A DNA stretch of 64,000 nucleotides from Deltaproteobacteria bacterium (GCA_016210005.1 JACQVA010000008.1:10625-74624), one strand, 5' to 3'; shown: positions 11,378 through 64,000, counted from the stretch's first letter. The notes: generated by a model not told the origin, from the letters alone. Numbers and translations: made by a program.

Positions 11378-11395
11378 GATCGATCTCCGTCCGAG

Positions 11396-11887: not shown

Positions 11888-11978
11888 GCAGCACGTGAGC
11901 CAATAGCTGGCGCAACGGCCGGTGGTATAACTTGGGGGGCAGGATGGGCGCAAGCTGGCGGCGCGGAACGCTCCCGGC

Positions 11979-13052: not shown

Positions 13053-13080
13053 GCAGGGGCGAGGACCCGCGTGCGGGTGG

Positions 13081-39530: not shown

Positions 39531-40276
39531 TGCCGCTTGCAGCGCCGGCCGAAATCCAGGGCTACTATCGTGACCGCGAGGTGGTGGCGCGCTACCTCGA
39601 ACGTCGCACCGCGCAGCCGCTCAACGGTACGTTGCACGCGGCGCAAGTGCGCTTCCTGCGCCGCCTGATCGCCGAGCGCGCTCCGCAACGTGTGCTCGAG
39701 ATTGCCCCCGGACCGGCTCGTTTGACCGCTGAGCTGCCGCTGCCTGGTCTCGGTCTGGCCCTTGAGTACAGCGAAGGCATGCTGGCGGCTGCTAGTGACC
39801 GGATTACACCCACCTCCCATTGGCGCCTGGCCCGCGCCGACGCATTCCACCTGCCGGTGCGCGACGGCCAGGCCGACTTGGTGTTTACGTTGCGATTCAT
39901 TCGCCGCTTTCAAGCCGCCGACCGGCAGCGGGTGTACGCCGAGATCCATCGTGTGCTCAAACCCGGCGGCAGCTTGGTGTTGGATGCGCAGAACCGGGCG
40001 GTGGCGCTGCCCCATCGGCTCGAACGGGGCTTGGAAAAATATCCGGTGCACGACGAGCTATATGATCGGCCGCAGCTCGAGGCGGAGTTAGTGGCGGCCG
40101 GTTTTCGCGTGCGGCACCTCGAAGGCATGATCCGGCACGCGCGGCTCCAGCGCTCACTCAACCGGTTGCGGCGAGTACGCCTCAGTGCGGTCGCGCGAGC
40201 GTTGATCGCGGTTTTGGAGCACGTACCGAGCGCCAATCCGTCGACCTGGATGGTGTTGTGCGAGAAGACAGGCTGA
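39530..40276 (+). CDS. Class I SAM-dependent methyltransferase.
   Basis: VLEIAPGPARLT motif I and VLKPGGSLVLD. Confidence 0.7.
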   Translation: MPLAAPAEIQGYYRDREVVARYLERRTAQPLNGTLHAAQVRFLRRLIAERAPQRVLEIAPGPARLTAELPLPGLGLALEYSEGMLAAASDRITPTSHWRLARADAFHLPVRDGQADLVFTLRFIRRFQAADRQRVYAEIHRVLKPGGSLVLDAQNRAVALPHRLERGLEKYPVHDELYDRPQLEAELVAAGFRVRHLEGMIRHARLQRSLNRLRRVRLSAVARALIAVLEHVPSANPSTWMVLCEKTG

Positions 40277-47166: not shown

Positions 47167-50100
47167 ATGATTGACCGATACGGAAAATCCCTGCTCCTGG
47201 CAGTCGCGCTCTTGGGGCTTAGTGCGCCAATGGTGCAAGCTGCGCCGGTCCTGTTTGTTCGCACGACCGGTGACGACGGGGCGGATGGGTTGTCGCCCGC
47301 TACCGCCCTGCAGAGCATCCGTTCGGCGGTGCAGCGCCTAAGTGAAAGCGGCGGACAGGTGATCGTAGGCCCAGGCACATATGTCGAAGGGGATATCTCG
47401 CCGCGGACACTTGCCGGGCCGGGCTTGCTGCGCCCGGATGCGCTGGAGATTATCGCAGATCGCGATGGGCGGCTGACTAGCGAGCTACCCGGGCCGGTGA
47501 TCGTCGACGCCGGCGTGGCCGGCAAGCCGACAGGGTTCGTGCTGCTCGGCGAATCGAATATCCGCATAGATGGATTCCACGTGCGTGGTGCGTCCGACGC
47601 CGGTATTCAAGTTCGGTTCAATACCGCGGCAGGCACGCCGTCCGCGGATGTCACGATCATAAATTGTGTGGCGTTCGCGAACGAGAAGCGCGGTATCGAT
47701 GTTCGCGATGCCGACCGGGTTACGGTGGCGAACAACCTAACGTACAATAACGGCTCGACCGGCATCTCGGTCGGTGGTGGGATCCGTGGCTCCGCCGACG
47801 CTGTAATCATGCAGAACACCAGCGTTGGCAATGGCATCTACGGGATCTTTGTCGGCGATGGCAATCAAAGCGCCGTCGCCTCGAGTAACGTCATCGTCTT
47901 GTCGAATGTGACAGCGTACAATGGCGTGGCGGGGATCAAAGCGGCCCCGGCTTCGCAGCGCACGTACGGCAGTGCTTTCAATGTGAGCGCCGACGCCTTT
48001 GAGCCGGTGACGTCACAAGACCCGACCGACCTGGCCGCGGATCCCTTGCTGGCGAACCCTGCTGGTGCGCCAGGCGGGCTGGGTGGGGGCGAACTTGCCG
48101 ACGATGATTTCCGCCTGCGAGCGGGAAGCCCTGCGCTCGATTACGGACCCGCTGACGCGACAACCGTCGGAATCACCGGCAGCGCGGCGGTGGACGGCGG
48201 CCCTGACGATGGCACGGTTGACGCCGGCTATCATCAGAGCAACACGGCGACGCAACTGGTGGTGCCGGCGATTCCCTTGGTGCCGATCTTCGTTCGCATC
48301 ACCGGCAGTGATTCAAACGGCGGCGGGACGGCGGACCAAGCGTTGCGCACGATTGGGGCTGCAGCCGCTCGCGCTCGTGCCGGAAACCGCGTTGTCGTTG
48401 GCGCTGGGGAGTACCGCGAAGGTGATATCAGCCTGTTGGATCAGTCGGGAACGAAGCATCGGCCGGTAGAGTTTGTCGCGGACCACGATGGCATCTGGAC
48501 TGGTGATCAGGGTGCGGTGATCATAGATGCCACCGGCTGGCAGACTGCTTTTAACCTTCTTGGAAGCCGCTACGTGAAGATCGACGGTTTTAGCGTTACC
48601 GGCGGGCGCGATTCCGGCATCCAGATCCGCGCGCGCGCAACGGTAGATGGCCTACACGGCGCCGACAACGTTACTGTGATCAATTCGCTGGTATTTTCCA
48701 ACGGCGGTAGCGGAATTCTGGTCAGGGATTCAGCCGAAGCGGCAATATACAATAACCTGGTGTATGCCAATGCCACGGGTGGAGTGGCGATCGGCGGTCT
48801 CGAGGTTGGTTCGCCGCGGGCACGCGTCGCCAACAACACCGTGTATCAGAACGGTGGACACGGGATCCTGATCGGGAGCCGGGGCGATCAAGACAGGCGG
48901 GGATCACCCGGGGCACTGGTCCTGAACAATATCCTGGATCGCAACGGCGGCCGCTCCCTGCTGGTGACGCCGCTGTCGCTTCGGGATTTCAGCGCCACTG
49001 CGAACTTGGATGGGGACATCGTCGGCGCGATCGGCTTCGTCAATCCGGCCGGGGCCGACGGCCAGCTCGGCGGCGCGGGCTTCCTGGATGACGACTTTAG
49101 GTTACAGCAGCGCAGTGCCGGGCAGGAAACGACGAGTGTCGCGGTCGATTATAGTGCCGGCATGGCCGCACCGATGGGGCTGCACTTCGGCTCGACGCGC
49201 ACTGACCTGGTCGGCGACGAAGGGCTTGCCGATGCCGGTTTTCACTATCGCCGTGTCGGGCAACGGCCGGTGTTGGGCACGCTCGCTACCCTGCAAGCGC
49301 GCCTGGCCGGCGTTAACGCAAACCGGCTTCTCTTCGTGGCTGTCGATGGCGACAATGGCGATGGGCGGACGCCGGCCAACGCCTTTTCGACCATTCGGGC
49401 AGCAGCTCGCGTGGCAATGCCCGGCGATACAATCGTGGTAGCGCCGGGCCGGTATGCGGAGGGAGATGTCTCGTTCAACAACAGCGGCACTGTGCTGCAA
49501 CCGATCGCAGTAGTGGCGGATTCCAGCGGAGCACTATCAGGCACTGCCCCGGGGCGTGTAGTGGTCGATGCGACAGGGTACGATACAGGTTTCGTGCTGT
49601 TGCGTCGCAGCTTCATTCAGATTCGCGGATTCTACATCAGCGGGGCACGAGAGGCCGGTATTCAAGTGCGGGCATGCTCGGGGGACGGATCGTTGTGTGC
49701 AACGCGTGCAGGATCCGATCACGTCACCATCGCCGGAAATGTGATTTACTCCAGCCGCCGGGGTATCGACGTCATCGACTCCAGCGACGCGGTGATCTTC
49801 AACAATCTTATATACGCCAACGAGAGCACCGGCGTCACCGTTATCGGCGAGGTGCGCTCTGCCGACGGCACGCAGGTGACGAACAACACGCTCTACCGTA
49901 ACGGTGGCGACGCGCTCTTGCTCGCGGGCACACTGGGAGCACCGAACGCCAGCGTAGTTAATAACTTGATTCAAGGGAGTGGTCTCCTCGGGGTGAAGGC
50001 GAAGCCCGAGGCGCGGCCGACGCTGGTGCTGAGCCATAACATCAATCTCGACGGTGCTAGTGCAGGAACGCCGCCGGACCCGGACGACCGAGGAATGGAC

Positions 50101-51300
50101 CCCCTATTTGTCCAGCCGACAGGTGCAGACGGAATCTTGGGCGGTGTGGGCTTTGCTGACGATGACCTCCGGCTTCAGGCTTGGCGCAGCCCCGCAGTGG
50201 ATGCCGGCGCACTCGACGCGGCCGACATGGCGCTCAGTGACGGTGTTGCCCGGAGTGATGGCGTTCGCGACAGCGGGCGCGCCGATCTCGGGTTCCACTA
50301 TGACGTCCTCGGGCCGCTCGCCGATACGGCGCAGCCCGCGGTGACGCTCTACGTCCGGGCGCAGGCAGGGGACGACCGGAACGACGGTCGCACGCCGGCC
50401 TCTGCCTTGCGGACGGTGGCGCGCGCCGCTGCCCAAGCGGGTGCCGGGACCCGGGTCTTCATTGGCACCGGGGTGTACCGTGAAGGGAATCTGCGGCCGG
50501 CTGGCAGCGGAACGGCGACAAATCCGATTGTGTTCGTCGGGGATTCTACCGGCGTCGAGACCGGTGACGGGCCGGGCGAGGTGTTGATCGATGCGACCGG
50601 ATGGAGCACGGGTTTTCGGCTGGTGGGTGGCGGGTATGTCAGATTGGAGAATCTGAGCGTTACCGGGGCGGCTAGCGCGGGCATCCTGGGCCATGCGATT
50701 GCTGGGCTCGAGTTGGCAAACTGCAAGGTGTTCTCCAACCGCAGCACGGGCGTGGCGCTGTGGCGCGTGCGCGGCGCCAGCACGGTTTTCAATAACTTAG
50801 TGTACGCCAACGGTGGCGACGGGGTGCAGCTGCGCTTGCGGCGAGAGCGTGCGGGGGCGGTGCGGCTGGCCAACAACACGGTCTATGGGAACGGCGGCCG
50901 CGGGGTATGGGTCGAGCGCTCGGGGCCGTCGCGCCGCCAAAGTGCTGTGCTGATCGCGCATAACATCATGCACAGCAATGCCGTTGACCTCGTTGTAGCC
51001 TCGCGCCGCGCTACCGGGCTCCGGCTGTTGCCGAACCTGTTGTCTCAGGCGCCAGCTGGCGACATTAGGGATGGGGGACTGCTGGTGAGCCCCCAGCTGT
51101 TTGCTGTGCCAGCCGGCGCCGACGGTGTACTTGGCGGGGCCGGCTTCGCCGACGACGACTTTCGCGTGGAGGCGACTTCCCGCGCCATCGACGCCGGGGT
51201 GGACGGTGCGGCAACCTGGGCTCTGGCTGAGACAACTGTTCGCCATGACGAGCTAGCGGACGAGGGTCTGATTGATCTTGGTTATCACTACCCACGCTGA
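47167..51300 (+). CDS. Secreted protein of 1377 aa composed of four tandem right-handed parallel beta-helix modules.
   Basis: Signal peptide MIDRYGKSLLLAVALLGLSAPMVQA. Four modules of about 340 aa each begin with a related motif (LFVRTTGDDGADGLSPATALQSIRSAV / IFVRITGSDSNGG..ALRTIGAAAA / LFVAVDGDNGDGRTPANAFSTIRAAA / LYVRAQAGDDRNDGRTPASALRTVARAAA). Each is followed by NN..N.. turns and ends with ...LGGAGFADDDFRL. Confidence 0.85.
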   Translation: MIDRYGKSLLLAVALLGLSAPMVQAAPVLFVRTTGDDGADGLSPATALQSIRSAVQRLSESGGQVIVGPGTYVEGDISPRTLAGPGLLRPDALEIIADRDGRLTSELPGPVIVDAGVAGKPTGFVLLGESNIRIDGFHVRGASDAGIQVRFNTAAGTPSADVTIINCVAFANEKRGIDVRDADRVTVANNLTYNNGSTGISVGGGIRGSADAVIMQNTSVGNGIYGIFVGDGNQSAVASSNVIVLSNVTAYNGVAGIKAAPASQRTYGSAFNVSADAFEPVTSQDPTDLAADPLLANPAGAPGGLGGGELADDDFRLRAGSPALDYGPADATTVGITGSAAVDGGPDDGTVDAGYHQSNTATQLVVPAIPLVPIFVRITGSDSNGGGTADQALRTIGAAAARARAGNRVVVGAGEYREGDISLLDQSGTKHRPVEFVADHDGIWTGDQGAVIIDATGWQTAFNLLGSRYVKIDGFSVTGGRDSGIQIRARATVDGLHGADNVTVINSLVFSNGGSGILVRDSAEAAIYNNLVYANATGGVAIGGLEVGSPRARVANNTVYQNGGHGILIGSRGDQDRRGSPGALVLNNILDRNGGRSLLVTPLSLRDFSATANLDGDIVGAIGFVNPAGADGQLGGAGFLDDDFRLQQRSAGQETTSVAVDYSAGMAAPMGLHFGSTRTDLVGDEGLADAGFHYRRVGQRPVLGTLATLQARLAGVNANRLLFVAVDGDNGDGRTPANAFSTIRAAARVAMPGDTIVVAPGRYAEGDVSFNNSGTVLQPIAVVADSSGALSGTAPGRVVVDATGYDTGFVLLRRSFIQIRGFYISGAREAGIQVRACSGDGSLCATRAGSDHVTIAGNVIYSSRRGIDVIDSSDAVIFNNLIYANESTGVTVIGEVRSADGTQVTNNTLYRNGGDALLLAGTLGAPNASVVNNLIQGSGLLGVKAKPEARPTLVLSHNINLDGASAGTPPDPDDRGMDPLFVQPTGADGILGGVGFADDDLRLQAWRSPAVDAGALDAADMALSDGVARSDGVRDSGRADLGFHYDVLGPLADTAQPAVTLYVRAQAGDDRNDGRTPASALRTVARAAAQAGAGTRVFIGTGVYREGNLRPAGSGTATNPIVFVGDSTGVETGDGPGEVLIDATGWSTGFRLVGGGYVRLENLSVTGAASAGILGHAIAGLELANCKVFSNRSTGVALWRVRGASTVFNNLVYANGGDGVQLRLRRERAGAVRLANNTVYGNGGRGVWVERSGPSRRQSAVLIAHNIMHSNAVDLVVASRRATGLRLLPNLLSQAPAGDIRDGGLLVSPQLFAVPAGADGVLGGAGFADDDFRVEATSRAIDAGVDGAATWALAETTVRHDELADEGLIDLGYHYPR

Positions 51301-53913: not shown

Positions 53914-55590
53914 GTGGTCGCGGGCGTGAGGGAACACGGCGTGCGTGATCCTTGGCTGCTGGTCGTACTGGCGCTCAGCGCCAGCCTCGGGCTCTACCAA
54001 CTCACGTGGGGGCTGCCCAATGGCGATCACTCGTGGGCCGCCGACGCGCTCGGGCCGGTGACCGTGCTCGGGATCGTGCGCCGCTCGCTCGCCGAATGGA
54101 ATTCGGGATGGTTCTACTTCAAGTACCCCGTGGGCTATCCCCTGATGCTGTTCGCGGTCTCGGCACCGTACCTGGCGTGGCTGTTTGTGAGCGGGCAGCT
54201 GCGGCAGCCCAAGGCCGTCTATCCCTACGGCTTCAGCGATCCGGAAAACGCGCTCTACGCCATGGCGCTGCTCGGGAGATGCCTGAGCGTGATTTGCCTG
54301 GTGGCAACGGTGGCGCTGACCTACGATATCGGCCGGCGGCTGTTCGGCCGTACCGCCGGCCGCTTGGCGGCGTGGTTTGTCGCCAGTGCCTATCCGGTGC
54401 TCTACTACGCTCACACCACCAACTTAGACGCGGCCTACCTCTGCTGGCTGGCGCTGGCATTGTGGGCCGCGGTGGTGGCGGCCGAGGGCGAGCGGCGCTG
54501 GCCCTATGTCGCGCTCGGCATCGCCGCCGCGATGGCGGTCTCGACCAAGGAGCAGGCGTTTGCCTTCCTGCTGCCGCTGCCGCTGGTTATCGCCGTGCGC
54601 CGGTATCGGGCGCAGCCGGCCGCGCTCGGCGGTGCGCAGCGCTGGGCCACTGCGCTGTGGAACCGCGGCACCCGCGCTGGGCTGACGGCTACGATGCTGG
54701 CCTTGACGATCGGCAGTAACGTGGCGTGGAACCCGAGCGGGTTCGTCAATCGGATTCGCTACCTCAGCGGCCAGCAGATCCCCGGGGTGTCCGCGCGCCT
54801 GGCACCGGTGGAGTTCGGGCTCTTCAAAGGGGCTGACAAGGAGTGGCAGTACTTGCAGCAGCTTTACGACGCAATCGAGAGCAGCCTGGGCCTGCCGCTG
54901 GTACTCACCAGTGCGGCCGGAGTGGTCTACGTGGCACTCAGGTACCGCTCGGCTGCGGCCGCTTTGCTGTTGCCGGCGGCCGCCCAGTACTACCTTTCTC
55001 TGCGGACCCTCGACTTGATCACCCTGCGTTACACGCTGCCGCTGAGCTTGATCATCGCCTTGTGTGCCGGTGCGCTGTGCGCGGATGCGCTGGCCTCACC
55101 CGCGCGCTACCTGGCCGGGGCGGTGGTAGCTGGCCTGTGTGTGCTTGGCCTGGCGCGAGCGATCGAGTTGGATCTGCTGCTGCGTGATGATCCGCGCTAC
55201 TACGCCGAGGCCTGGTTGCGCCGCAACGTGGCGGCTGCCAGCGCGGTGGAAGTATACCAGAAGCCGGTGTATTTGCCGCGGCTGCGCGGCCTGAACGCTC
55301 GAACGGTGGCACTCGAAGAGCGCACGCTCGCGGGCTTGTCACAACGGCGGCCCGACTTCATCGTTACCAGCTCGGCGGCGAAGAAAGGTATCACCCACCG
55401 CTGGCGTACCGACTGGCGCCAGGGACTGCTGGAGCCGGGCGCCGGCGCCCCGGACTTCCTGCGGGCGCTTGAATCCGAGCAGCTCCCCTACCGTGCGGTG
55501 GCGCGCTTTCGCCAGCAGCCGGCGCTGCTGCGCGTGCGCATTACCAGCCTGTGCCCGGAGATCACCGTCTTCGCGCGAAGCAACCCATGA
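53914..55590 (+). CDS. GT-C-fold membrane glycosyltransferase (family-39 / ArnT-PMT-like).
   Basis: Multi-TM N-terminal half with a conserved early loop (..YFKYPVGYPLM..), then a C-terminal soluble domain. Confidence 0.6.
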   Translation: MVAGVREHGVRDPWLLVVLALSASLGLYQLTWGLPNGDHSWAADALGPVTVLGIVRRSLAEWNSGWFYFKYPVGYPLMLFAVSAPYLAWLFVSGQLRQPKAVYPYGFSDPENALYAMALLGRCLSVICLVATVALTYDIGRRLFGRTAGRLAAWFVASAYPVLYYAHTTNLDAAYLCWLALALWAAVVAAEGERRWPYVALGIAAAMAVSTKEQAFAFLLPLPLVIAVRRYRAQPAALGGAQRWATALWNRGTRAGLTATMLALTIGSNVAWNPSGFVNRIRYLSGQQIPGVSARLAPVEFGLFKGADKEWQYLQQLYDAIESSLGLPLVLTSAAGVVYVALRYRSAAAALLLPAAAQYYLSLRTLDLITLRYTLPLSLIIALCAGALCADALASPARYLAGAVVAGLCVLGLARAIELDLLLRDDPRYYAEAWLRRNVAAASAVEVYQKPVYLPRLRGLNARTVALEERTLAGLSQRRPDFIVTSSAAKKGITHRWRTDWRQGLLEPGAGAPDFLRALESEQLPYRAVARFRQQPALLRVRITSLCPEITVFARSNP

Positions 55591-55594
55591 TATT

Positions 55595-57013
55595 ATGATC
55601 TTCAACTCACTGGCGTTCTTGATTTTCTTACCCGTCGTGCTGGTGCTGGTGGCGACCCTGCCCAAGCGCTGGCGCAACGCCATGTTGCTGGTGGCCAGCT
55701 ACATCTTTTACGGCTATTGGGATTGGCGCTTCGTCGGGCTGCTGTTCGCGACCACTGTGGTGGACTTCTGGGTCGGGCAGCACATCTACGCCACCAATGA
55801 TCGCTTGCGCCGCCGGCGGATCCTACTGCTGAGCCTGGGGGTCAACCTCGGGGCACTCGGGTTCTTCAAGTACTTCAACTTCTTCATTTACTCCGCGGCG
55901 GCCGCGCTGCAGTCGGTCGGGCTCCATGGTTCGATTCCGACGCTCTCGATCATTCTGCCGGTGGGGATTTCCTTTTACGTCTTTCAGTCGATGTCGTACA
56001 CCATCGACATCTATCGGCGCGAGATGGAGCCGGCGCAGAGCTTCTGGGATTTCGCCCTCTACGTCGCTTACTTCCCCCAACTAGTCGCCGGCCCGATCGA
56101 GCGTGCCACCCACCTGCTGCCGCAAATCGTCAACCCCGGCCGCTTCTCGCCCGAGCGCGCCAACATCGCCGTGGTATTGATCATTGTCGGCTTCGCCAAG
56201 AAGGTGTTGATCGCTGACAACCTGGCACCGGAGGTCGAGCGCATCTTTTCCGATCCCGGTCACATGAGCAGTGGGGAGCTATTACGGGGCGCCTACTACT
56301 TCGCCTTCCAGATCTACGGTGACTTCGCCGGCTATTCCGATATCGCGCGCGGCGTCAGTGAGTTGCTCGGGATTCGACTGATGTTCAATTTCAACCAACC
56401 CTACCTCTCACAATCAATCACCGAGTTCTGGCGCCGCTGGCACATCTCCCTTTCCACCTGGCTGCGCGACTACCTCTACGTGCCGCTGGGCGGCAACCGC
56501 TTGGGCGAGTGGAAGACCTATCGCAACTTGATGCTGACCATGCTGATCGGCGGGCTGTGGCACGGGGCGAACTGGACCTTTGTCGCCTGGGGCGGCATCA
56601 ACGGGCTGTATCTGGCGGTGGAGCGCCGGCTTGGCATCGGCCGCGGGTTGTCCGCCGCCGAGGCCAATCCGGCGCTGCAATGGGTCGGTCGCGTGGCCCT
56701 AACGTTGCTGACGTTCCACTTGGTAACGCTGACGTGGATCTTCTTTCGCGCGCCGAACTTCGGCGTCGCCTTCGAGTATCTTGCCGGCATCGCGCAATTG
56801 CGCGACCTGACGGCGATCGGAGTGTGGCCGTTCGCTGTCGCCGCGGCTCTCTTAGCCATCGACATTCCTCAGAATCGCTCCGGGGATCACGCGGTGTTTC
56901 TACGCATGCCGTGGTGGGTGCAATCTCCCGTCTATTGCGGCCTGGCGTTCGCGGTTTTGGGCCGGCTGCTCTGGGGCGGGAAGGAATTGCCGTTCATCTA
57001 CTTCCAGTTTTGA
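55595..57013 (+). CDS. MBOAT-family membrane O-acyltransferase (AlgI/DltB-like).
   Basis: MIFNSLAFLIFLPVV N-terminus; conserved His region WRRWHISLSTWLRDYLY. Confidence 0.85.
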   Translation: MIFNSLAFLIFLPVVLVLVATLPKRWRNAMLLVASYIFYGYWDWRFVGLLFATTVVDFWVGQHIYATNDRLRRRRILLLSLGVNLGALGFFKYFNFFIYSAAAALQSVGLHGSIPTLSIILPVGISFYVFQSMSYTIDIYRREMEPAQSFWDFALYVAYFPQLVAGPIERATHLLPQIVNPGRFSPERANIAVVLIIVGFAKKVLIADNLAPEVERIFSDPGHMSSGELLRGAYYFAFQIYGDFAGYSDIARGVSELLGIRLMFNFNQPYLSQSITEFWRRWHISLSTWLRDYLYVPLGGNRLGEWKTYRNLMLTMLIGGLWHGANWTFVAWGGINGLYLAVERRLGIGRGLSAAEANPALQWVGRVALTLLTFHLVTLTWIFFRAPNFGVAFEYLAGIAQLRDLTAIGVWPFAVAAALLAIDIPQNRSGDHAVFLRMPWWVQSPVYCGLAFAVLGRLLWGGKELPFIYFQF

Positions 57014-57030: not shown

Positions 57031-57996
57031 GTGAAACAGTCGGCGGTCGTGAATACACCGGCTCGGCCAGGGACGATCGCGGCCTCTGCCGCCGTGGGTT
57101 GCCCGGTGTGCGGCGGGACGGAGTTTGGCGCGATGTTCGGCGGGGGCGCGCGGCCCACGGCGCGTCGCAACGCCGGGGCCTACCGCATCACGCAAAGCTC
57201 GCGCGCCTTGGTCGGCGCCATCCAGCGTTGCCGCAACTGCGGCTTGGGGCTGTTGCCGCCGGCGTTGGTTGACGCCGGCCACTACGAAGAGGGCTTCGAC
57301 GAGCGCTTTGCCGAACAGGCCCAGGTCCGTATCCGTAACGCCGAGCGGCTGCTCGAACTGTTGCCGCCGCCGGTGCCCGGAGCGCGCTTGCTCGATGTCG
57401 GCTGCGCCTACGGCTTTCTGCTCGCGGCGGCGCGCATCGAGGGCTACACCCCGGTCGGGGTCGAGCTGTCGCAACCGGCCGCCGAACACGCCCGCCAAGC
57501 TTACGGGGTCGAGGTGTTCAACGGCCCGGTGCAAGATGCGCCATTCCCGCCCGGAAGTTTCGACGTCATCACGCTCAGCGACGTGATCGAGCATTTCAGT
57601 GATCCTGCACCGGTGGTGGCACGACTGCACCAGTGGCTGCGCCCGAACGGGCGACTGCTCATCCTCACGCCGGATGCCGGCAGCGTGGTGGCCCGCCTGT
57701 TGGGCCGTCACTGGTGGGCCTTGCTGGATGATCACTACTGGTATTTCTCGCGTCCGACGCTGACCCGCTTCTTGGCGCAGCAAGGCTTTGCCGTCGAGCG
57801 GCTGCACTCTTTCGGGCGAGTATTTCCAATCGCGCATTGGGTGTTCAAGCTCAGCCAGTACAACGCCGGCGTGCACCGCCTGCTCGACCGAACCGTGCGC
57901 ATGTTGGGTTTGGCGGAGACGGAAGTGCCACTGAATCTCGGTGATCAGATGGCGTGTGTGGCGCGACGGACGGACCAGGGTAGGCCCAGGAGATAA
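57031..57996 (+). CDS. Class I SAM-dependent methyltransferase with an N-terminal Zn-ribbon (CxxC..CxxC).
   Basis: GTG start with an AAGGA RBS. CPVCGG...CRNCGL, then LLDVGCAYGFLL motif I. The track ORF N-terminal extension overlaps the MBOAT gene and is spurious. Confidence 0.75.
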   Translation: MKQSAVVNTPARPGTIAASAAVGCPVCGGTEFGAMFGGGARPTARRNAGAYRITQSSRALVGAIQRCRNCGLGLLPPALVDAGHYEEGFDERFAEQAQVRIRNAERLLELLPPPVPGARLLDVGCAYGFLLAAARIEGYTPVGVELSQPAAEHARQAYGVEVFNGPVQDAPFPPGSFDVITLSDVIEHFSDPAPVVARLHQWLRPNGRLLILTPDAGSVVARLLGRHWWALLDDHYWYFSRPTLTRFLAQQGFAVERLHSFGRVFPIAHWVFKLSQYNAGVHRLLDRTVRMLGLAETEVPLNLGDQMACVARRTDQGRPRR

Positions 57997-57997
57997 G

Positions 57998-59236
57998 ATG
58001 GCGGTCGAAGCAGCTCGATCTTCAGCGCGGCGGACAGAGCGCGAGGACCAAACCCCCGCGGCGACGCTCCAAGCGGCGGCGCGCCATAGTGCGCGGCGCC
58101 GTGATCCCGGCGTCACCAGCTTGCGTGATTACATTGACTACCTGACGCCTAAGCGAGTGGGTAAGTTGCTCTTCGGCGTGGCGGTCAGCCTGATAGTCGG
58201 CGAGGTTAGCCTGTACTGGCTGACGCCGATGGAGGAATTCCTGCCCAAAGACATTGTGACCAAGGATGCCGAGTTGGGCTTTCGAATGGTGCCCAACTAC
58301 GTCGGGACGATGGTGGTGAAGGAAAACGCCACCCCGTTCTCGTTGCCGTTGCTGACCAACTCTTGGGGGCTGCGCGACCGCGAGTACGGCGAGCGTCCGG
58401 CCGGCGGCATGCGGGTCTACGTCATCGGCGACTCGATGATATTCGGCTACGGTGTGCCGGTGGAACAGACCTTCACGCGGTTCCTGGAGAAATCGCTGCA
58501 GCAGCAGCTGGGGCGTCCGATCGAGGCCGTTAATGGCGGCGTGCCCGGCTATGGGACGGGGGAGGAGTTGGGCTTCTTCGAAAGAACCGCCGATACCGTC
58601 AAACCGGATGTCGTCTTGCTGGCCTTCAACGTCTTCAACGACGTGGACGAGAACATCAACTTCACCGCCGCGGCGCACAAGGCGTCGCGTTTGCCGAGCT
58701 GGTTGGACGAGGTGCGGTTATGGTTGCGCCAGCGCAGCCAGCTGTATTTGCTGGTGCGCCGCTACAAGGCGGCGGCGCGCACCGAACGGATCCTGCAAGT
58801 CCATCGAGTCGAGCCGCCGGCGCGAATCGTCAAAGGTTTGGCCACAACCGAAGACCTGCTGGCGCGTTTCGCGCAAGCCGCAGCCAGTCGCGGCGTTCGC
58901 TTCGCGGTGGTGCTGATTCCCAACTACCGTCAAGTGTTCCCGACGGTGTGGGCGCAGATGGTGGCCAAGCAGGGACAGGCCGCCGCCGCCTTCGATCCGC
59001 AGCAGCCCAACGCCCGGCTGACGGCGGCGCTGCATGCGCGCGGCATTCCGGTCATTGACCTGCTCCCGGTGCTGCGCGCGCACGTCGACGATGCCCTGTA
59101 CTACAGCGTCCATTGGAAGGCGCCCGGGCACGAGCTGGTCGCCAAGACCGTGGCGGATTTCATGCTCGGGAGCGGATTGCTCGCTCCCGCCCCGGCGGTG
59201 TCAGCAACCGCGGCGGCGGCACCCGATCATACGTGA
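57998..59236 (+). CDS. SGNH/GDSL-family protein (AlgJ/AlgX-like).
   Basis: ATG with an AGGAG RBS; RVYVIGDSMIFGYGV (GDS block); signal-anchor TM. Confidence 0.7.
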   Translation: MAVEAARSSARRTEREDQTPAATLQAAARHSARRRDPGVTSLRDYIDYLTPKRVGKLLFGVAVSLIVGEVSLYWLTPMEEFLPKDIVTKDAELGFRMVPNYVGTMVVKENATPFSLPLLTNSWGLRDREYGERPAGGMRVYVIGDSMIFGYGVPVEQTFTRFLEKSLQQQLGRPIEAVNGGVPGYGTGEELGFFERTADTVKPDVVLLAFNVFNDVDENINFTAAAHKASRLPSWLDEVRLWLRQRSQLYLLVRRYKAAARTERILQVHRVEPPARIVKGLATTEDLLARFAQAAASRGVRFAVVLIPNYRQVFPTVWAQMVAKQGQAAAAFDPQQPNARLTAALHARGIPVIDLLPVLRAHVDDALYYSVHWKAPGHELVAKTVADFMLGSGLLAPAPAVSATAAAAPDHT

Positions 59237-59250
59237 ACAAGGAGCACGCG

Positions 59251-60078
59251 ATGGCGACTCAACCAACAACCGCTGCCGTGGTTGCCGCGACTGCGCCAGC
59301 CGCCAGGGGGACGCAGGACCGGCCGAAGGTCGTGGTGGTAATGCCCGCTTACAACGCCGCGCGTACGCTGCGCATGACCTATACCGATCTACCGCATGAC
59401 TCGGTCGATATGGTCATCTTGGTCGACGACGGCAGCACCGATGATACCGTCGCCGTCGCCCGCGAGTTGAACCTCAAGCTGTTCCTGCACGACCGCAACT
59501 ACGGTTACGGCGCCAATCAAAAGACTTGCTACGCCGAAGCCCTACGCGCAGGCGCTGACATCATCGTCATGGTTCACCCCGATTATCAGTACGACCCCCG
59601 CCTGCTGCCCGACATCGTCCACCCCATTCAACGGGGCGAGGCGGACGTCGTACTCGGCTCGCGGCTCAAGAGCGGCTCGGCCCTCAGTGGCGGCATGCCC
59701 TGGTGGAAGTACGTCTCCAATCGCTTCCTCACCGGGGTGGAGAACTGGGCCTTCGGACTGCACTTGTCCGAGTACCACACCGGTTACCGGGCCTACCGCC
59801 GTGAAGTGTTGGAGACCGTTAACTTCCGGCTCAACGCCGACAAGTTCATCTTCGATCAGGAGATCATCGCTCAGGTGGTCGACGCCGGCTTCCGCATCGC
59901 CGAGGTGGCAGTGCCGACCCGCTACTTCGCCGAAGCGTCATCGGCGAGTTTCTTGGCCAGCGTTCGCTACGGGCTCGGCATCCTCTGGGTGGTTGGACGC
60001 TATCTGATGCACCGCTCCGGGCGCTGGCCGCAGCGGCAGTTCCAGAGCCTGCAGGGGCGCTACCGGGCGATCAACTGA
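59251..60078 (+). CDS. Glycosyltransferase family 2, polyprenyl-phosphate sugar synthase type (Dpm1/GtrB/ArnC-like).
   Basis: AAGGAG RBS; VVVVMPAYNAARTL, VDDGSTDDT and the DxD region. Confidence 0.8.
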   Translation: MATQPTTAAVVAATAPAARGTQDRPKVVVVMPAYNAARTLRMTYTDLPHDSVDMVILVDDGSTDDTVAVARELNLKLFLHDRNYGYGANQKTCYAEALRAGADIIVMVHPDYQYDPRLLPDIVHPIQRGEADVVLGSRLKSGSALSGGMPWWKYVSNRFLTGVENWAFGLHLSEYHTGYRAYRREVLETVNFRLNADKFIFDQEIIAQVVDAGFRIAEVAVPTRYFAEASSASFLASVRYGLGILWVVGRYLMHRSGRWPQRQFQSLQGRYRAIN

Positions 60079-61474
60079 GAGGCCGCCGCGCGTATACCTG
60101 CACCGCGTCGATGGTGCCGACGCGCTCGTAGCGCGCGTTGATCTGCGGTTGAAAGTCACTCCAAGTGGTGGGTACAGTCACGATCACCTGGGGCTCGCCG
60201 GCACTGATCAGGGCGCCGATACGCCCGAGGGTCAGGCAATGCCGGGCGGCGGCCTGCGGCTCGGCGAGCTTGCGCGCCATGTTGGCTTCCCAGAAGCCGA
60301 CACCGCGATAACCCGGCCGGCCGGCGAAGGTGGGGTATCCTTCCCACCACGAGAGCACCGGGTCGTTGGGGCGGCTGTGCCGCTGAATCAGCGCCACCAC
60401 CGCCGCTACCGTCGGGCGGCTCCAGAGGCGGTTCTTCGCCTCGCCTTCTTCGGAGAAGACGCTGATCGGTGAGAGGCCGAGCGTGGGGAGTAGACAGAGC
60501 ACATACACCGCCACGGTTGTCGCCAGCGCGCGGCGATGGCGAGCGAGCCGTTGCATGCCCGGCGCGGCCGCGGCGAACAGGAACGGCAGCAGCTGGACTG
60601 CGTAGATCAGGTAGGTCGGGGTGGCCTGCAGCAAAGCCGCGCCGATCAGCACGCAGGCAACGGCGGGCAGTACCGGCACGGAAGCGCCGGCGCCTGCGGT
60701 AACCAGAAGTAACAACAAGTTCTGAGGAAACAGAAGCCACTTCAGCAGGACCGCCGCCTTCTGCCATGCGGCCGCGATCGGGTCGGCGAAATTGCCGCGC
60801 AAGGCGTGGAAGCTGTAGTTGCCGAAGATGAAATTGGCGGGGTCGATCAGGGCCAGGATTCCCGCGGGTGCGAGTGCGAGCGCAAAGCCGGCGGCCAGCG
60901 GCAACAACGCCCGCGCCCGGCCATGCCACCACAGCCCGGCGGCGTACGCCGGCAGCAGCGGCAGCAGCGGCAAACGGCAGCCGACAGCCAAGCCGAGGCA
61001 CAACCCAGCCCAACCGGGCCGGGCGCGCTCGATGGCGATAAAGGACACGAAGGCCAGTAGGTCGGACGGAGCATGCGTAATCGCGGTGGCGTGGGTGCTC
61101 AGCTTCAAGCCATGCAAGACGAAGCAGGCGAAGAGCGCCAGGCGCGCGGTCGCGGACAGCTGCCAGCGGGCGCTCTCGCGGTACAAAACCCACGACAGCA
61201 CGATACTACAGGCGGCTGCCGTGATGCGGGCTGCCGTCAGCAGCGGCAGCCCGGCCAGCACCAGCGGCGCGAACAGATACGGCAGGTACGGCATCTGGGG
61301 ATAGAAATAGTCGCGGTAGAGCACCTGGCCGGCGGCCACCTGCCGGCTGGCGGCGAGGTAGAACCCTTCGTCGGGATTGATGCGGCGGTGAAATACCATC
61401 CAGACGAGCAGCAGCGCCTGCAGCAGCAACAGCAGCCCGGCGGCCGTTGCTGTTCGTCGCGGTGTCAGATGCAT
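60071..61474 (-). CDS. GT-C-like multi-TM membrane protein, a putative polyprenyl-phosphate-sugar-dependent glycosyltransferase.
   Basis: 480-aa ORF with about 10 TM segments and the N-terminal loop motif INPDEGFYLAAS. It converges on the GT2 gene and overlaps it by 8 nt. Confidence 0.5.
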   Translation of the reverse strand: MHLTPRRTATAAGLLLLLQALLLVWMVFHRRINPDEGFYLAASRQVAAGQVLYRDYFYPQMPYLPYLFAPLVLAGLPLLTAARITAAACSIVLSWVLYRESARWQLSATARLALFACFVLHGLKLSTHATAITHAPSDLLAFVSFIAIERARPGWAGLCLGLAVGCRLPLLPLLPAYAAGLWWHGRARALLPLAAGFALALAPAGILALIDPANFIFGNYSFHALRGNFADPIAAAWQKAAVLLKWLLFPQNLLLLLVTAGAGASVPVLPAVACVLIGAALLQATPTYLIYAVQLLPFLFAAAAPGMQRLARHRRALATTVAVYVLCLLPTLGLSPISVFSEEGEAKNRLWSRPTVAAVVALIQRHSRPNDPVLSWWEGYPTFAGRPGYRGVGFWEANMARKLAEPQAAARHCLTLGRIGALISAGEPQVIVTVPTTWSDFQPQINARYERVGTIDAVQVYARRPLS

Positions 61475-61562
61475 AGCGGGGCGCGAGTAGCACTGGCGCT
61501 TCCGCGCTGTCAATGCGCCTCGAGCGGAAAGCCACGATGAGGGCAGCTCCGGGGGCCGGAGA

Positions 61563-63269
61563 TTGCGCCAGCGCTACGCGGTGCCGGGGCGGGGGATGAG
61601 CAGCGGGATGCGGGCGGGCGGACAGAATGGCGCACCGATTGGGCAGGTGATCCGGGACTCCGGCATCGCCTCGGTACTGGCGGTGCTGATCGGCGGGGTG
61701 ACCACTGCCATGCTCCTGCGCGAAGCCGGCGGCAGCCCGTTGGGCTTGCTCCACCGGGGCGCGGGCTCGGCCTTTGCCCTCGGCGCTCTGCTGGCCGGCA
61801 GTGCGTTCAACTTCGGCGGGCGCTGGATCCGCTGGCAATACCTGCTGCGGGTCTGTGAAGTGCGGTTGCCGACGCGGGAAAGCGCGCGGCTGTTCTTCTC
61901 GTCCTTCGCTGTGCTGCTCACACCGCTCTACCTGGGCGAGATCATTTTCAAGGCCTTCGTGCTGCAGCGGCGCCGCACTACGCCGGTGGGGTTGACCGCC
62001 GCCGTAGCGTTGGCCGAACGCCTGTACGACTTTGCTGCTCTCATGCTTATCGCCGGGCTCGCGGGTCTGGCCAGCGGACACGCCACCGGCTGGCTGCTCC
62101 TGCCCACGGCGGCGTTGTGTATCCGGCCGATCCGGCGCGCGCTGATGGCCGCCGCCGCGTGGCCGGTGATGGCGGCGGGCAAGCTCGCACTCGGCGCCGA
62201 TACCCAGCCGGCGCGCGAGACGATGCTCGCGCTGGCCGATGACGCCGTGTCGTTGCCAACCGTCGCGCTGTCGGTGCTGTGTTGGCTGCCGGTGACGCTG
62301 GCGTTGTGGCTGGTGGGGATTGCCGGCGCTTTGCCGATCGGCCTGGTGCCGGGCGCACGGCTGTTCTCGACCTCGGCGCTGCTCGGCGGCGTCTCGCTAC
62401 TCCCGGCTGGAGTGGCCATCGCCGGACAGAGCATGGTGCATGGGCTGACGGAACTCGGCGTGGAATTTCCCCGGGCGGTGGCGGCGGTGGTGCTGGTGCG
62501 TTTGGGGACGCTGGGGCTCGCCATCGGTGTCGGCCTGGCGGCGCTGGCCTGGACGGCCTGGCGCGGCGAATTCGCCGATACCGGGGCGCAAGCGCACTTC
62601 GATCGCGTCAGCGCGGTGTACGACGCCGAGATCCCCTTGCACGTGCGCGACTACGTGGTCCGGCGCAAGGTCGACCTCATGGCCGCCGGCATAACCGGGG
62701 CGGCGCCGGTGGGACTCGATCTCGGCTGCGGCCGCGGCTACTACCTCGAAGAGCTGCGCCGGCGCGGCTATCGCGTGGTCGGCAGCGATCTCTCTGCCGG
62801 GCAGCTCAGAACCGCCCGGGCCGCGGGTGAGGCGGTTGCCGCCGATGCTTCGCAACTGCCGTTTCCCGATGGCACGTTCGATTTTGTATACAGCGTCAAC
62901 ATGTTCCACCATCTGCCTCGGCTGGAGATGCGGCGGCAGGGGTTGGCGGAGATTCGTCGCGTGCTGAAGCCGGGCGGCCGCTTCTTCTTGCACGAGATCA
63001 ATGTGACCAATCCGCTGTTTCGCTTTTACATGAGTTACGTGTTTCCGATTCTGCGCCACATCGACGATGGCACCGAGCGCTGGATCCTGCCCGCCACGCT
63101 GGCGGGGCCACCCGGGCTCAGCCTGTGCGCGGTGCGCTACTTCACCTTCATCCCCGATTTCCTGCCGCGCTGGGCCGCCCGCTGGATGCACGGCCTGGAG
63201 CAGCGCTTGGAAGCCAGCCGCTGGGCGCAGTTCAGCGCCCACTTCGTCGCCGACTTCGAACGAACGTGA
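61563..63269 (+). CDS. Fusion protein: an MprF-type flippase-like TM domain (LPG-synthase-TM / TIGR00374-like) joined to a C-terminal class I SAM methyltransferase.
   Basis: The N-terminal 330 aa are multi-TM with LTPLYLGEIIFKAFVLQRRR..ERLYDFAALMLI. The C-terminus has VGLDLGCGRGYYL and VLKPGGRFFLHE. Confidence 0.65.
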   Translation: MRQRYAVPGRGMSSGMRAGGQNGAPIGQVIRDSGIASVLAVLIGGVTTAMLLREAGGSPLGLLHRGAGSAFALGALLAGSAFNFGGRWIRWQYLLRVCEVRLPTRESARLFFSSFAVLLTPLYLGEIIFKAFVLQRRRTTPVGLTAAVALAERLYDFAALMLIAGLAGLASGHATGWLLLPTAALCIRPIRRALMAAAAWPVMAAGKLALGADTQPARETMLALADDAVSLPTVALSVLCWLPVTLALWLVGIAGALPIGLVPGARLFSTSALLGGVSLLPAGVAIAGQSMVHGLTELGVEFPRAVAAVVLVRLGTLGLAIGVGLAALAWTAWRGEFADTGAQAHFDRVSAVYDAEIPLHVRDYVVRRKVDLMAAGITGAAPVGLDLGCGRGYYLEELRRRGYRVVGSDLSAGQLRTARAAGEAVAADASQLPFPDGTFDFVYSVNMFHHLPRLEMRRQGLAEIRRVLKPGGRFFLHEINVTNPLFRFYMSYVFPILRHIDDGTERWILPATLAGPPGLSLCAVRYFTFIPDFLPRWAARWMHGLEQRLEASRWAQFSAHFVADFERT

Positions 63270-64000
63270 GCGACCGAGCCACGGTGTTTCCGCCCATCCG
63301 GCTGGGGCTGGTGATCGGGCAGCTCAGCGCGGGCGGCGCCGAGGGCCAGCTCTTGCTGCTGTGCCAGGGCCTCGATCGCGCTCGCTTCAGTCCGGTGGTG
63401 TATTGCCTAGGCGATCGGACCATCCCTTACGCGCCGCTGCTCGAGGCCGCGGGCGTGCCGGTACGGGTGATTGCCGGTGCGCGCCCCGCAAGACTGTGGC
63501 GGCTGGCGCAATGGTTGAATCGCGATCGTATCGAGGTGGTGCACGCCTGGCTGTTCATTGCCAACGCTTACGCCTGGCTGGCCAACCGCCATCGGCGCCG
63601 CCCGCTGCTGACTTCCGCCCGTAACTGCAAGCGCCAGGGCTGGCTGCTCGACCGGCTCAACCGCCGCGCCTTCGCTGCCAGTGACGTGATTGTCGCCAAC
63701 TCACAACAAGTGGCACGCTACATCGCAGAGCAATACGGTGCCCCGCCCGGGCGCACCACGGTGGTATACAACGCCATCGATACGCAGCGCTTCCATCCAC
63801 CGGCGCAGCGTGACGGCGGCGGTTTGTGTGTCGTCATGATCGGCCGGCTGGTGCCGCAGAAGGACCCACTGCTGTTCGTCGCCGCCGCCGCCGCCCTCCG
63901 CCAGCAGCTGGCCGGCGTGCGCTTCGTGCTGATCGGCGACGGGCCGTTGCGGGGCGAGGTCGAGGCGGCGGTAACGGCGGCCGGCCTGCAAGCTTGTTGC
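63266..64000 (+). CDS. Glycosyltransferase family 4; the 5' portion only, since the gene runs off the right edge.
   Basis: The GTG overlaps the upstream stop. IRLGLVIGQLSAGGAEGQLLLL is a typical GT4 N-terminus. It is missing from the ORF track because there is no stop in the window. Confidence 0.7.
   Translation, partial: MSDRATVFPPIRLGLVIGQLSAGGAEGQLLLLCQGLDRARFSPVVYCLGDRTIPYAPLLEAAGVPVRVIAGARPARLWRLAQWLNRDRIEVVHAWLFIANAYAWLANRHRRRPLLTSARNCKRQGWLLDRLNRRAFAASDVIVANSQQVARYIAEQYGAPPGRTTVVYNAIDTQRFHPPAQRDGGGLCVVMIGRLVPQKDPLLFVAAAAALRQQLAGVRFVLIGDGPLRGEVEAAVTAAGLQACC

Follow-up and report, generated by a model that had tools for sequence, protein, structure and literature searches.

A gene of a member of the Deltaproteobacteria (GCA_016210005.1; JACQVA010000008.1:10625-74624, the whole stretch of 64,000 nucleotides that was analysed and is called the window here) codes for a protein of 553 amino acids in which a flippase-like transmembrane (TM) domain is fused to a class I SAM methyltransferase. 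Since this fusion keeps the same gene company in many uncultured bacteria, it probably serves cell-surface glycosylation through a methylate-and-flip step that is as yet uncharacterised. The more specific reading, in which it handles the lipid as the middle one of three components of a periplasmic glycosylation pathway, between a GT2 and a GT-C glycosyltransferase, is given about even confidence; this reading is supported by gene context, the parts being co-located and co-conserved across the loci that carry the fusion. The relevant features of the window are the following.

40280-41629: Wzx flippase
53914..55590, + strand: second GT-C glycosyltransferase, PMT_2 family, 558 aa (PMT_2, E 9e-12, 45.9 bits versus a cut-off of 26.1)
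55595..57013, + strand: MBOAT/DltB-AlgI-like membrane O-acyltransferase (PF03062, E 7e-29; DltB model, E 1.6e-45, below cut-off)
57031..57996, + strand: stand-alone class I methyltransferase (Methyltransf_23, E 3.5e-30; gene call in locus L001)
57998..59236, + strand: SGNH/AlgX-like protein (Lipase_GDSL_2 and ALGX matches; gene call in L001)
59251..60078, + strand: GT2, DPM1/PpgS/AglJ-like candidate polyprenyl-phosphate monosaccharide synthase, 275 aa (PF00535, E 7e-22)
60071..61474, - strand: membrane glycosyltransferase of predicted GT-C fold, ArnT-like, 467 aa, no Pfam model (GT-C467)
61475..61607: divergent intergenic region between the GT-C467 and fusion genes, 133 nt, read from the sequence
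61608..63269, + strand: PplT(PF03706)-SAM methyltransferase fusion gene, 553 aa (reading frame open from TTG 61563)
61674..62528, + strand: MprF-type flippase-like TM domain (PF03706/PplT) of the fusion
62586..63266, + strand: class I SAM methyltransferase domain of the fusion
63266..64000, + strand, running off the window: GT4 glycosyltransferase (GTG start overlapping the fusion stop, GTGA)

Database gene calls place the start of the fusion at ATG 61608, within the longer open reading frame. In a profile search, residues 38-322 of this frame matched nearly the whole of PF03706 (LPG_synthase_TM; positions 2-300 of 302) with 46.0 bits, above the gathering score of 33.4, and in the NCBIfam search TIGR00374 scored 36.7 bits, just under its cut-off of 43.2. 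Residues 385-476 matched Methyltransf_11 (E 3e-26); among the Pfam and NCBIfam profiles the C-terminal half matched methyltransferase families only, and not DUF2156. The predicted structure (pLDDT 91.9, pTM 0.90) consists of two intact domains packed as one unit. Its TM domain superposes on MprF and has the fold of the MprF membrane domain, and its methyltransferase half shows a Rossmann-like fold with the glycine-rich motif I and the acidic post-I residue. Across the fusion family neither the SAM motif nor the family-specific residues vary, and there are invariant positions in the TM half, the methyltransferase half and the linker alike; within the TM domain the family alignment shows R72, R81, R138 and D141 to be invariant and R75, R90, E111 and E137 nearly so. 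A phmmer search of the PDB with the TM domain, by which these residues might have been paired with the charged cavity residues that MprF needs for translocation, gave no match. Identity with the bifunctional MprF itself was rejected, as the NCBIfam model scored 23.8 bits versus a cut-off of 600. The methyltransferase domain is equally weakly similar to sugar O-methyltransferases, a phosphatidylethanolamine (PE) N-methyltransferase (8ys9) and UbiG, and this likeness to several substrate classes was counted against the three-component reading.

More than 100 protein clusters match the fusion, and approximately 100 of 109 matches keep its architecture at 500-590 aa, which excludes a frameshift that joined two genes. 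At E<=1e-30, 1,105 representatives (50% identity) match it, and the top full-length matches share the architecture. The fusion of a flippase-like half and a methyltransferase, as claimed in a preliminary description of the window, is thus borne out by profiles, model and recurrence, with an N-terminal domain that belongs to PF03706 and not to an unrelated transporter family.

The GT2 upstream is predicted from its sequence to be of the polyprenyl-phosphate sugar synthase type. Its best NCBIfam models are AglJ (3e-23), PpgS (2e-21) and dolichyl-phosphate hexose transferase (3e-16), all under the equivalog cut-offs, and its nearest solved structures are the Pyrococcus DPMS (5mlz) and ArnC; it has no TM helices and is therefore not a processive synthase. 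GT-C467, which converges with the GT2 in an 8-nt overlap, had no Pfam, NCBIfam or PDB sequence match, nor could a CAZy family be assigned. Its AlphaFold2 model (pLDDT 94.4, pTM 0.93) was most similar in Foldseek to ArnT (5f15; E 9e-7, TMq 0.71), with STT3, ALG9, ALG12, PglB, DPY19 and Pmt4 next. Across the 49 homologous clusters of its family, a DEGFY motif after TM1 has an invariant E36 and a D35 conserved in at least 90%, and this acidic motif lies in the predicted first periplasmic loop, as in the GT-C superfamily. The domain assignments first made for these genes, a GT2 and two GT-C enzymes, hold up: the GT2 by its relatives, GT-C467 by an ArnT-like predicted fold although no profile library recognises it, and the gene at 53914 by its PMT_2 score.

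Gene neighbourhoods were compared over 83 non-redundant fusion loci, within 5 kb of the fusion. A DPM1-like GT2 was present in 26 loci and directly adjacent in 17 of these. Verified GT-C enzymes of five families (PMT, PMT_2, YfhO, GT87 and ArnT-like) occurred in 27/83, a count that rises to 53/83 on addition of three unannotated polytopic families and to 61/83 when a GT-C or any adjacent large polytopic protein is accepted. Partner matches cluster at the fusion and become fewer in the outer flanks. A VTT/DedA gene lies near the fusion in 14/83 loci, and in an operon of the Acidobacteriota the order is DedA, GT2, fusion, a polytopic protein of ~900 aa with a weak match to the LA_3751/LA_3752 putative glycosyltransferase model, and SGNH, the stop and start codons overlapping. 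Undecaprenyl phosphate is a known substrate of DedA flippases, but some DedA subfamilies flip PE instead; the latter were counted against the three-component reading. The combination of GT2, flippase-like protein and GT-C suggested earlier for the window is consequently backed by neighbourhood conservation across phyla.

The same loci bear on the possibility that the fusion couples housekeeping phospholipid methylation (PE to methyl-PE or phosphatidylcholine, or ornithine-lipid methylation) to flipping and stands in a polysaccharide locus by coincidence. Nineteen of the 83 loci have no GT2 or polytopic partner, although a few of these are short contigs; one such orphan context is locus L092, and the structural likeness to 8ys9 points the same way. 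Against this, a GT2 or GT-C is adjacent, often with overlapping stop and start, in most loci across phyla, far beyond coincidence. The family is also patchy: relatives were found in the genomes of 177 of 185,579 GTDB species representatives, with hosts in the Myxococcota, Acidobacteriota, Gemmatimonadota, Planctomycetota, Chloroflexota and others, and so it fits a housekeeping role poorly. We regard this explanation as very improbable.

The surroundings of the fusion in the window are a Wzx/Wzy-type polysaccharide locus, and sister cassettes help to separate its permanent from its variable parts. Such cassettes (L089, L091 and, apart from the GT2, L090) share the GT2-GT-C467 pair, PMT_2, MBOAT, SGNH and a beta-helix protein with the window but lack the fusion; their PMT_2 protein (566-578 aa) occupies the same cassette as the second GT-C of the window. 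The GT2 is paired with the GT-C467 family in L089, L091 and L008, a fusion locus 66% identical to that of the window, and in L090 a UbiA prenyl-phosphate enzyme and a methyltransferase stand in its place. The fusion is an accessory insertion in this cassette, a point that the preliminary description missed, and is not needed for the GT2/GT-C pair, because the sister cassettes work without it. These cassettes are also relevant to the view that the fusion is a membrane-tethered tailoring methyltransferase that flips nothing: PF03706 would be an anchor or scaffold beside GT-C or polymerase complexes, the substrate would be a Wzx/Wzy intermediate on the cytoplasmic side, such as the repeat unit linked to Und-PP, and the polyprenyl-phosphate sugar would cross elsewhere. 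The stand-alone methyltransferases in the fusion-less L089 and L090 and in the window, the fusion-less GT2/GT-C pairs of L089 and L091, and the Wzx flippase of the window all agree with such a role. However, the invariant charged TM residues and the full MprF fold exceed the needs of an anchor, and the fusion also adjoins GT2 and GT-C where there is no Wzx/Wzy, as in the five-gene operon of the Acidobacteriota. Moreover, no other candidate small flippase was found: the window contains no ORF of 90-230 aa with at least three hydrophobic segments, as expected for a GtrA/ArnEF-like protein, and no small polytopic ORF besides DedA recurs across the 83 related loci. Tethering without flipping is hence unlikely.

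Two features of the operon structure were counted against the three-component reading: the oppositely oriented GT-C467 gene separates the upstream GT2 from the fusion, and the latter is co-transcribed with an overlapping GT4-GT2-epimerase series. In the window it is translationally coupled to the downstream GT4, and not to the upstream GT2; in L001 this GT4 has 366 aa, and after it come a GT2 (349 aa), a protein of 98 aa and an epimerase. A search of the divergent intergenic region for a consensus sigma-70 site found none. This arrangement would suit a glycerolipid or glycolipid head-group pathway in which the downstream GT4 and GT2 glycosylate phosphatidylglycerol (PG) or diacylglycerol, the fused methyltransferase methylates the head group and PF03706 flips the lipid, the neighbouring GT2 and GT-C being unrelated members of the locus. 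The same-strand order GT4, GT2, small protein, epimerase is repeated in L008, one planctomycete homologue overlaps and is coupled to a CDP-alcohol phosphatidyltransferase gene, and the structural matches of the fusion include a PE N-methyltransferase. Every experimentally characterised PF03706 protein or partner (MprF, GpgSDF, HexSDF) acts on glycerolipids or glycolipids, for which reason a glycerolipid role is retained as a possibility; GpgSDF (GT4, deacetylase and PF03706) makes GlcN-PG, HexSDF is analogous, and MprF is termed a promiscuous lipid scramblase in the title of one report. The glycerolipid substrates of these proteins and the planctomycete coupling also weigh against the three-component reading, as do the loci without partners and the sister cassettes that lack the fusion. 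Yet the GT4-GT2-small protein-epimerase block adjoins GT-C467 in L090 and L091, where there is no fusion, and so belongs to the cassette. Of the 83 loci, the window and L008 alone have this GT4 beside the fusion, whereas the neighbours conserved family-wide are DPM1-like GT2, GT-C families and DedA. The cassette of the window contains no lipid-synthesis gene, and the deacetylase of a GpgSDF/HexSDF-type operon was sought in it and not found, although the GT4 overlaps the fusion. A head-group pathway is thus judged improbable.

For the three-component pathway, we infer a polyprenyl-phosphate sugar as the substrate, which would be methylated and then flipped. Judging from its family, the GT2 (59251-60078) would transfer a single sugar from a nucleotide sugar to polyprenyl phosphate on the cytoplasmic side of the membrane, where the C-terminal methyltransferase, kept cytoplasmic by its own TM domain, could methylate the lipid-linked sugar. 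After flipping, the ArnT-like GT-C (60071-61474), whose fold suggests this activity, would transfer it onto the Wzx/Wzy polysaccharide of the locus or a secreted protein, possibly with participation of the PMT_2 enzyme (53914-55590). In other lineages the DedA protein might return the free carrier lipid. Such a pathway would place the logic of MprF, in which the flippase domain is supplied by the protein's own cytoplasmic modifying domain, in a GtrABC/ArnC-ArnT-type setting without a small GtrA-type flippase. Tentatively, and with more doubt than confidence, this may be extended: MprF-type PF03706 domains could be the missing polyprenyl-phosphate monosaccharide flippases of GtrA-less bacterial GT2/GT-C systems, with a methyltransferase-fused subfamily that methylates before flipping, so that PMT, YfhO, GT87 and ArnT-like enzymes and those of two unannotated polytopic families install methylated sugars on surface glycans.

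Several known systems resemble parts of this arrangement. As in GtrA/GtrB/GtrC, ArnC/ArnEF/ArnT, CsbB/GtcA/YfhO and PpgS/Rv3632/Rv3779, a DPM1-like GT2 stands beside a GT-C in a locus for cell-surface glycans; the GT2 is similar to PpgS, AglJ and ArnC, GT-C467 folds like ArnT, and partners of the fusion elsewhere include YfhO, PMT and GT87. Unlike in the GtrABC and ArnC-ArnEF-ArnT types, there is neither a GtrA (PF04138) nor an SMR-type ArnEF flippase, and the sole candidate translocator is the MprF-type domain of ~8 TM helices, with a covalently attached methyltransferase that is absent from the GtrABC, Arn, CsbB and PpgS systems. PF03706 is likewise associated with a dolichyl-phosphate-sugar-forming GT2 and a PMT/STT3-like transferase in the archaeal AglD/AglR/AglS and arCOG00899 systems: a triad of these types, with PF03706 as flippase, was predicted for archaeal glycosylation from arCOG00899 neighbourhoods (Makarova et al., 2015; PMC5898192). 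In Haloferax volcanii, the transferase AglS receives Dol-P-Man made by AglD, in which a GT2 is fused to PF03706, and the Agl N-glycosylation pathway includes a SAM methyltransferase, AglP; translocation has been linked by experiment to AglR, and not to the AglD C-terminus. The system described here is bacterial; in it PF03706 is joined to a methyltransferase instead, and the GT2 is a separate gene in the window and related loci. MprF shares the succession of a membrane domain and a cytoplasmic lipid-modifying domain and the same proposed modify-then-flip logic, but has 14 TM helices, a DUF2156 aminoacyl-transferase as C-terminus and a setting in tRNA-dependent lipid aminoacylation, whereas the genomic partners of the fusion are glycosyltransferases. 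GpgSDF of P. aeruginosa (GlcN-PG) and HexSDF of C. difficile also encode a PF03706 protein with a GT4 and a head-group tailoring enzyme, but the latter is a separate deacetylase, the substrate a glycerolipid, and neither GT-C nor DPM1-like GT2 is present. The preliminary description, which did not recognise the system among described ones, overstated its novelty, since a PplT plus SAM-methyltransferase combination (cl04219 + cl17173) is among the less frequent PplT architectures of Hauser et al. (2022; bioRxiv 10.1101/2022.03.11.483950) and the triad is in Makarova et al. (2015); the preprint only lists the combination and neither defines a family nor describes its gene context or proposes a function. 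The fusion system is a variation on known three-component and PF03706 themes, with an architecture that had been listed before.

A long polysaccharide locus, with its genes on the same strand, ends in the region encoding the flippase-methyltransferase fusion; the G + C content of the genome is 64–70%. The features of this locus are as follows:

upstream part of the locus: several GT4 glycosyltransferases
upstream part of the locus: epimerases
29351–30781: Wzy_C protein
33884–35047: DegT aminotransferase
35062–36462: initiating Bac_transf protein
39530–40276: methyltransferase
40280–41629: Wzx-type flippase
43976–45754 (+): NodU/CmcH-type carbamoyltransferase
45764–46954: SGNH/AlgX-like protein
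47167–51300 (+): multi-module beta-helix protein of 1,377 aa with four or five NosD/Beta_helix modules
53914–55590: PMT_2 GT-C transferase
55595–57013: DltB/AlgI-like MBOAT protein
57998–59236: second SGNH/AlgX-like protein
59251–60078 (+): GT2 glycosyltransferase, 275 aa
60071–61474 (–): ArnT-like GT-C transferase of 467 aa (GT-C467)
61608–63269 (+): fusion protein, 553 aa

The gene order following the beta-helix protein is GT4, sulfatase-family protein, PMT_2 GT-C, MBOAT, methyltransferase, SGNH/AlgX, GT2, GT-C467 (reversed), and fusion. The carbamoyltransferase implies, by its sequence family, a carbamoylated sugar, and the presence of one MBOAT and two SGNH/AlgX-like proteins suggests periplasmic O-acylation of the polymer. 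The beta-helix protein, whose N-terminus was judged by eye to be a putative signal peptide, could be a glycosylation acceptor or a polymer-modifying enzyme; a similar giant protein is encoded at the head of the equivalent cassette in two other loci (L089 and L090). In NCBI, the exact match of the fusion is a 553-aa “methyltransferase domain-containing protein” from a deltaproteobacterial MAG. On the contigs carrying this exact protein, the genes beyond the window code for a GT4, a 349-aa GT2, a 98-aa protein, and an epimerase.

Profile searches, together with an AlphaFold-type model and fold matching for GT-C467, bore out the domain assignments that the preliminary description had made for the GT2, the GT-C enzyme, and the fusion. 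The GT2 is short and contains no TM helices. Its top-scoring profiles were AglJ, PpgS, and Dol-P hexose transferase, and its closest solved structures DPMS and ArnC; since all profile matches fell below the equivalog cut-offs, they support its assignment to the candidate class of polyprenyl-phosphate sugar synthases only and not an exact activity. Membership in a processive synthase family was ruled out by these top matches, by the absence of TM helices, and by an E-value of only 4e-4 for PgaC/IcaA. GT-C467 had no matches in Pfam, NCBIfam, and PDB sequence searches. Its model, which was built from an alignment of 48 sequences and reached a pLDDT of 94.4, matched ArnT first (E 9e-7, TMq 0.71), followed by STT3, ALG9, ALG12, PglB, DPY19, and Pmt4. 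A DE pair follows TM1, with D35 conserved at ≥90% and E36 invariant. According to the model, GT-C467 is thus a GT-C enzyme of a family for which no profile model exists.

The two-domain architecture of the fusion (500–590 aa) was found in approximately 100 of the 109 database clusters matched by the protein, and a scan with a degenerate pattern, in which each GTDB species was represented by one genome, identified relatives in 177 genomes, affiliated with the Myxococcota, Acidobacteriota (Vicinamibacterales), Gemmatimonadota, Planctomycetota, Chloroflexota, Binatia, Spirochaetota, and others. They include one cultured strain, the myxobacterium Pyxidicoccus fallax DSM 14698, in which the fusion homolog (L087, approximately 10001–11506) adjoins a GT87 enzyme (11287–13104). 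At E ≤ 1e-30, an exhaustive profile search with the fusion family recovered 1,105 representatives clustered at 50% identity, with the best matches spanning the whole profile. The TM half contains the invariant residues R72, R81, P106, R138, and D141; further invariant residues lie in the methyltransferase domain, namely in its N-terminal helix directly after the linker (H330, F331, and Y338), in SAM motif I (D371, G373, C374, and G375), and in a C-terminal segment specific to the family (H434, H435, E463, N465, N468, R472, Y474, and Y477). This broad distribution and the invariant residues in each half exclude a frameshift joining two genes, an artefact considered in the preliminary description. 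The fusion is a genuine protein of moderately wide distribution, and the conservation of its two halves suggests that each is functional. Some proteins of 200–300 aa (e.g., P0282–P0298) match the methyltransferase half only (profile positions ~267–530, E 1e-89 to 1e-117); these may represent metagenomic genes that are cut short, or orthologs of the fused methyltransferase that genuinely stand alone.

By profile and fold the fusion belongs to PF03706, and in both sequence and predicted models the SAM enzyme, which requires the cytoplasm, is covalently joined after the last helix of the MprF-fold membrane domain. By its high pTM, the model suggests that the halves are packed into a single unit. 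A phmmer search of the TM domain against the PDB gave no matches and hence no residue-level alignment to MprF. The methyltransferase domain matched the structures of the sugar O-methyltransferases RebM and AtmM, of PE N-methyltransferase, and of UbiG at similarly low identity, and these matches therefore do not discriminate between substrates.

The genomic context was analyzed in 80 fusion loci with 10-kb flanks and in loci from exact-protein look-ups, and counts refer to 83 non-redundant loci. Neighbors were clustered from six-frame ORFs, cluster representatives were annotated, and cluster HMMs were used for counting, since antisense shadow ORFs cause the ORF locus maps to undercount GT2 and DedA proteins.

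Neighbors within 5 kb of the fusion gene (83 loci)
GT2 family including the GT2 of the window: 26/83 (17 adjacent, mostly upstream on the same strand)
Verified GT-C (PMT, PMT_2, PMT_2-TPR, YfhO, GT87, ArnT-like): 27/83
Verified GT-C or three unannotated 10–15-TM families (~563, ~690, ~900 aa): 53/83
As before, or other adjacent large polytopic proteins: 61/83
VTT/DedA protein: 14/83
None of the counted neighbors: 19/83 (a few on short contigs; some true orphans, e.g., locus L092)

The matches concentrate at the fusion and not in the outer flanks; the GT2 family, for example, occurred in 29 loci overall. No small GtrA/ArnEF-like polytopic ORF was recurrent among the 83 loci or present anywhere in the 64-kb window. 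The Acidobacteriota possess a compact operon of DedA, a two-TM GT2, the fusion, the ~900-aa polytopic protein, and SGNH, with stop/start overlaps between genes; this arrangement was confirmed by independent gene calls. In about 17 loci of this type, a 512-aa polytopic protein without Pfam matches is encoded divergently from the DedA-GT2-fusion operon (e.g., L093, 3848–5386 (–)), and an inositol monophosphatase-family gene lies consistently 2–5 kb upstream. In Gemmatimonadota loci (L061, 4295–5359 (–); L028), PF03706 occurs once more, a few kb away from the copy fused to the methyltransferase, as a stand-alone protein (354 aa, E 1e-36) that adjoins a GT2 with two TM helices and a polytopic protein of 514 aa; this set would be a second, unfused GT2/PF03706/polytopic triad.

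Two of the unannotated polytopic families were characterized further:

L076, 11605–14319; L093, 8635–11235; 16 other loci: ~900-aa family (c4L), 10–15 TM helices, GGDEPHYLI motif
L039, 11472–13544; 20 other loci: ~690-aa family (c3), 10–13 TM helices, FNGDGAHAFE motif

The former directly adjoins the fusion in 16 of the 18 loci in which it occurs, and the latter in 17 of 23. Neither family had Pfam or PDB sequence matches, and hhalign comparisons with the ArnT-like family and the PMT clusters were not significant. The ~900-aa family weakly matched the NCBIfam LA_3751/LA_3752 putative glycosyltransferase model, as did a 743-aa neighbor of the top match of the GTDB scan, a fusion relative of 53% identity (L009). 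Each probably constitutes a new GT-C-like family.

For GT-C enzymes to glycosylate in the periplasm, a lipid-linked sugar donor has to cross the membrane. To our knowledge, translocators of such donors are known in few systems only (GtrA, ArnEF). Here, a DPM1-like GT2 and GT-C enzymes are encoded alongside the fusion, and another candidate flippase is missing. In this family, an MprF-type domain occupies the usual place of the flippase across at least six phyla. In the proposed pathway, the GT2 would load a polyprenyl-phosphate carrier with a sugar, the fused methyltransferase would modify this lipid-linked sugar at the inner face, the PF03706 domain would move it across the membrane, and the GT-C enzyme would pass the sugar to a periplasmic acceptor; DedA, where encoded, may bring back the carrier. 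As a whole, this pathway has an about even chance of being correct. Precedents exist for its parts: MprF is organized to modify and then flip; AglD, a GT2-PF03706 fusion, makes Dol-P-Man that is used by the transferase AglS; AglP is a SAM methyltransferase of the Hfx. volcanii Agl N-glycosylation pathway; and DedA proteins are undecaprenyl-phosphate flippases.

Relatives of GT-C467 with 35–40% identity (L089, L090, and L091) occupy the same type of cassette as in the window, in the order beta-helix giant, GT4, sulfatase, PMT_2, MBOAT, SGNH, GT2 (276–282 aa), GT-C467, GT4, GT2, small protein, and epimerase. The shared cassettes lead to the conclusion that the GT2 and GT-C467 form a conserved functional pair that would use a lipid-linked donor. 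In L090 (6121–7950), a UbiA-family enzyme and a 250-aa methyltransferase replace the GT2, which by analogy to the mycobacterial DPA pathway hints at a polyprenyl-phosphate pentose donor. Proteins of 515–568 aa that match PF27429 (LB_356), a recent addition to Pfam, adjoin the MBOAT in L089 (14515–16221) and L091 (4102–5649). None of the three sister cassettes contains a PF03706-methyltransferase gene; GT-C467 and the fusion occur together in the window, in the locus of a 66%-identical relative (L008), and on the contigs of the protein pairs P0004/P0113 and P0005/P0114. The fusion is therefore an accessory module gained by the clade of the window. This accessory nature, and the stand-alone methyltransferases of the sister cassettes, would also agree with a membrane-tethered tailoring methyltransferase that does not flip its substrate, a reading that leaves the conserved intramembrane charges and the absence of another flippase unexplained and is unlikely. 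Between the fused methyltransferase and the stand-alone methyltransferases of the cassette, similarity was of the generic class I type only and did not support orthology.

A function in a glycerolipid pathway has to be weighed against methylation and flipping of a lipid-linked sugar, since all experimentally studied PF03706 proteins act on glycerolipids or glycolipids. The fusion is translationally coupled to the following GT4, whose GTG start overlaps the TGA stop of the fusion gene on the contigs with the exact protein, and in a planctomycete MAG (L005, 10001–12459) a CDP-alcohol phosphatidyltransferase gene starts in overlap with the fusion stop and is followed by housekeeping genes, with no GT2 or GT-C, a context that points to phospholipids. 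However, neither gene is a conserved partner across the family: the phosphatidyltransferase was found in this one planctomycete only, and the GT4-GT2-epimerase block also occurs in cassettes without the fusion (L090, L091), which weakens the case for these genes as dedicated partners. A glycerolipid pathway is accordingly improbable; if correct, it would represent a new pathway to a methylated membrane lipid. Housekeeping phospholipid methylation agrees with the orphan loci, but with these only, and is very improbable.

The preliminary description had not recognized the arrangement from described systems. The domain combination, however, is not new: PplT with a SAM methyltransferase is one of the less common PplT architectures named, though not analyzed, in an earlier preprint (Hauser et al., 2022; bioRxiv 10.1101/2022.03.11.483950), and a GT2/PF03706/PMT-STT3-like neighborhood has been predicted for archaea (Makarova et al., 2015; PMC5898192). 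A literature search revealed no paper characterizing or analyzing the methyltransferase-fused PF03706 family. New here are the definition of this family, the methylate-then-flip hypothesis, and the cross-phylum association of the fusion with at least five GT-C families, DPM1-like GT2, and DedA. If the hypothesis is true, polyprenyl-phosphate sugars would join phospholipids as substrates of the MprF flippase fold, a lipid-linked monosaccharide donor would be shown to be tailored by an enzyme that carries its own translocator, and the unannotated polytopic families (~690 aa, ~900 aa, and the 467-aa ArnT-like family) would gain a functional handle. The fusion is not MprF, since it has no DUF2156 domain; its cassette is not GpgSDF-like, as it lacks a deacetylase; and the unfused GT2 sets the system apart from AglD. 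Although the system of the window lacks the small GtrA or SMR flippase of GtrABC, ArnC/ArnEF/ArnT, and CsbB/GtcA/YfhO, it functionally resembles all three.
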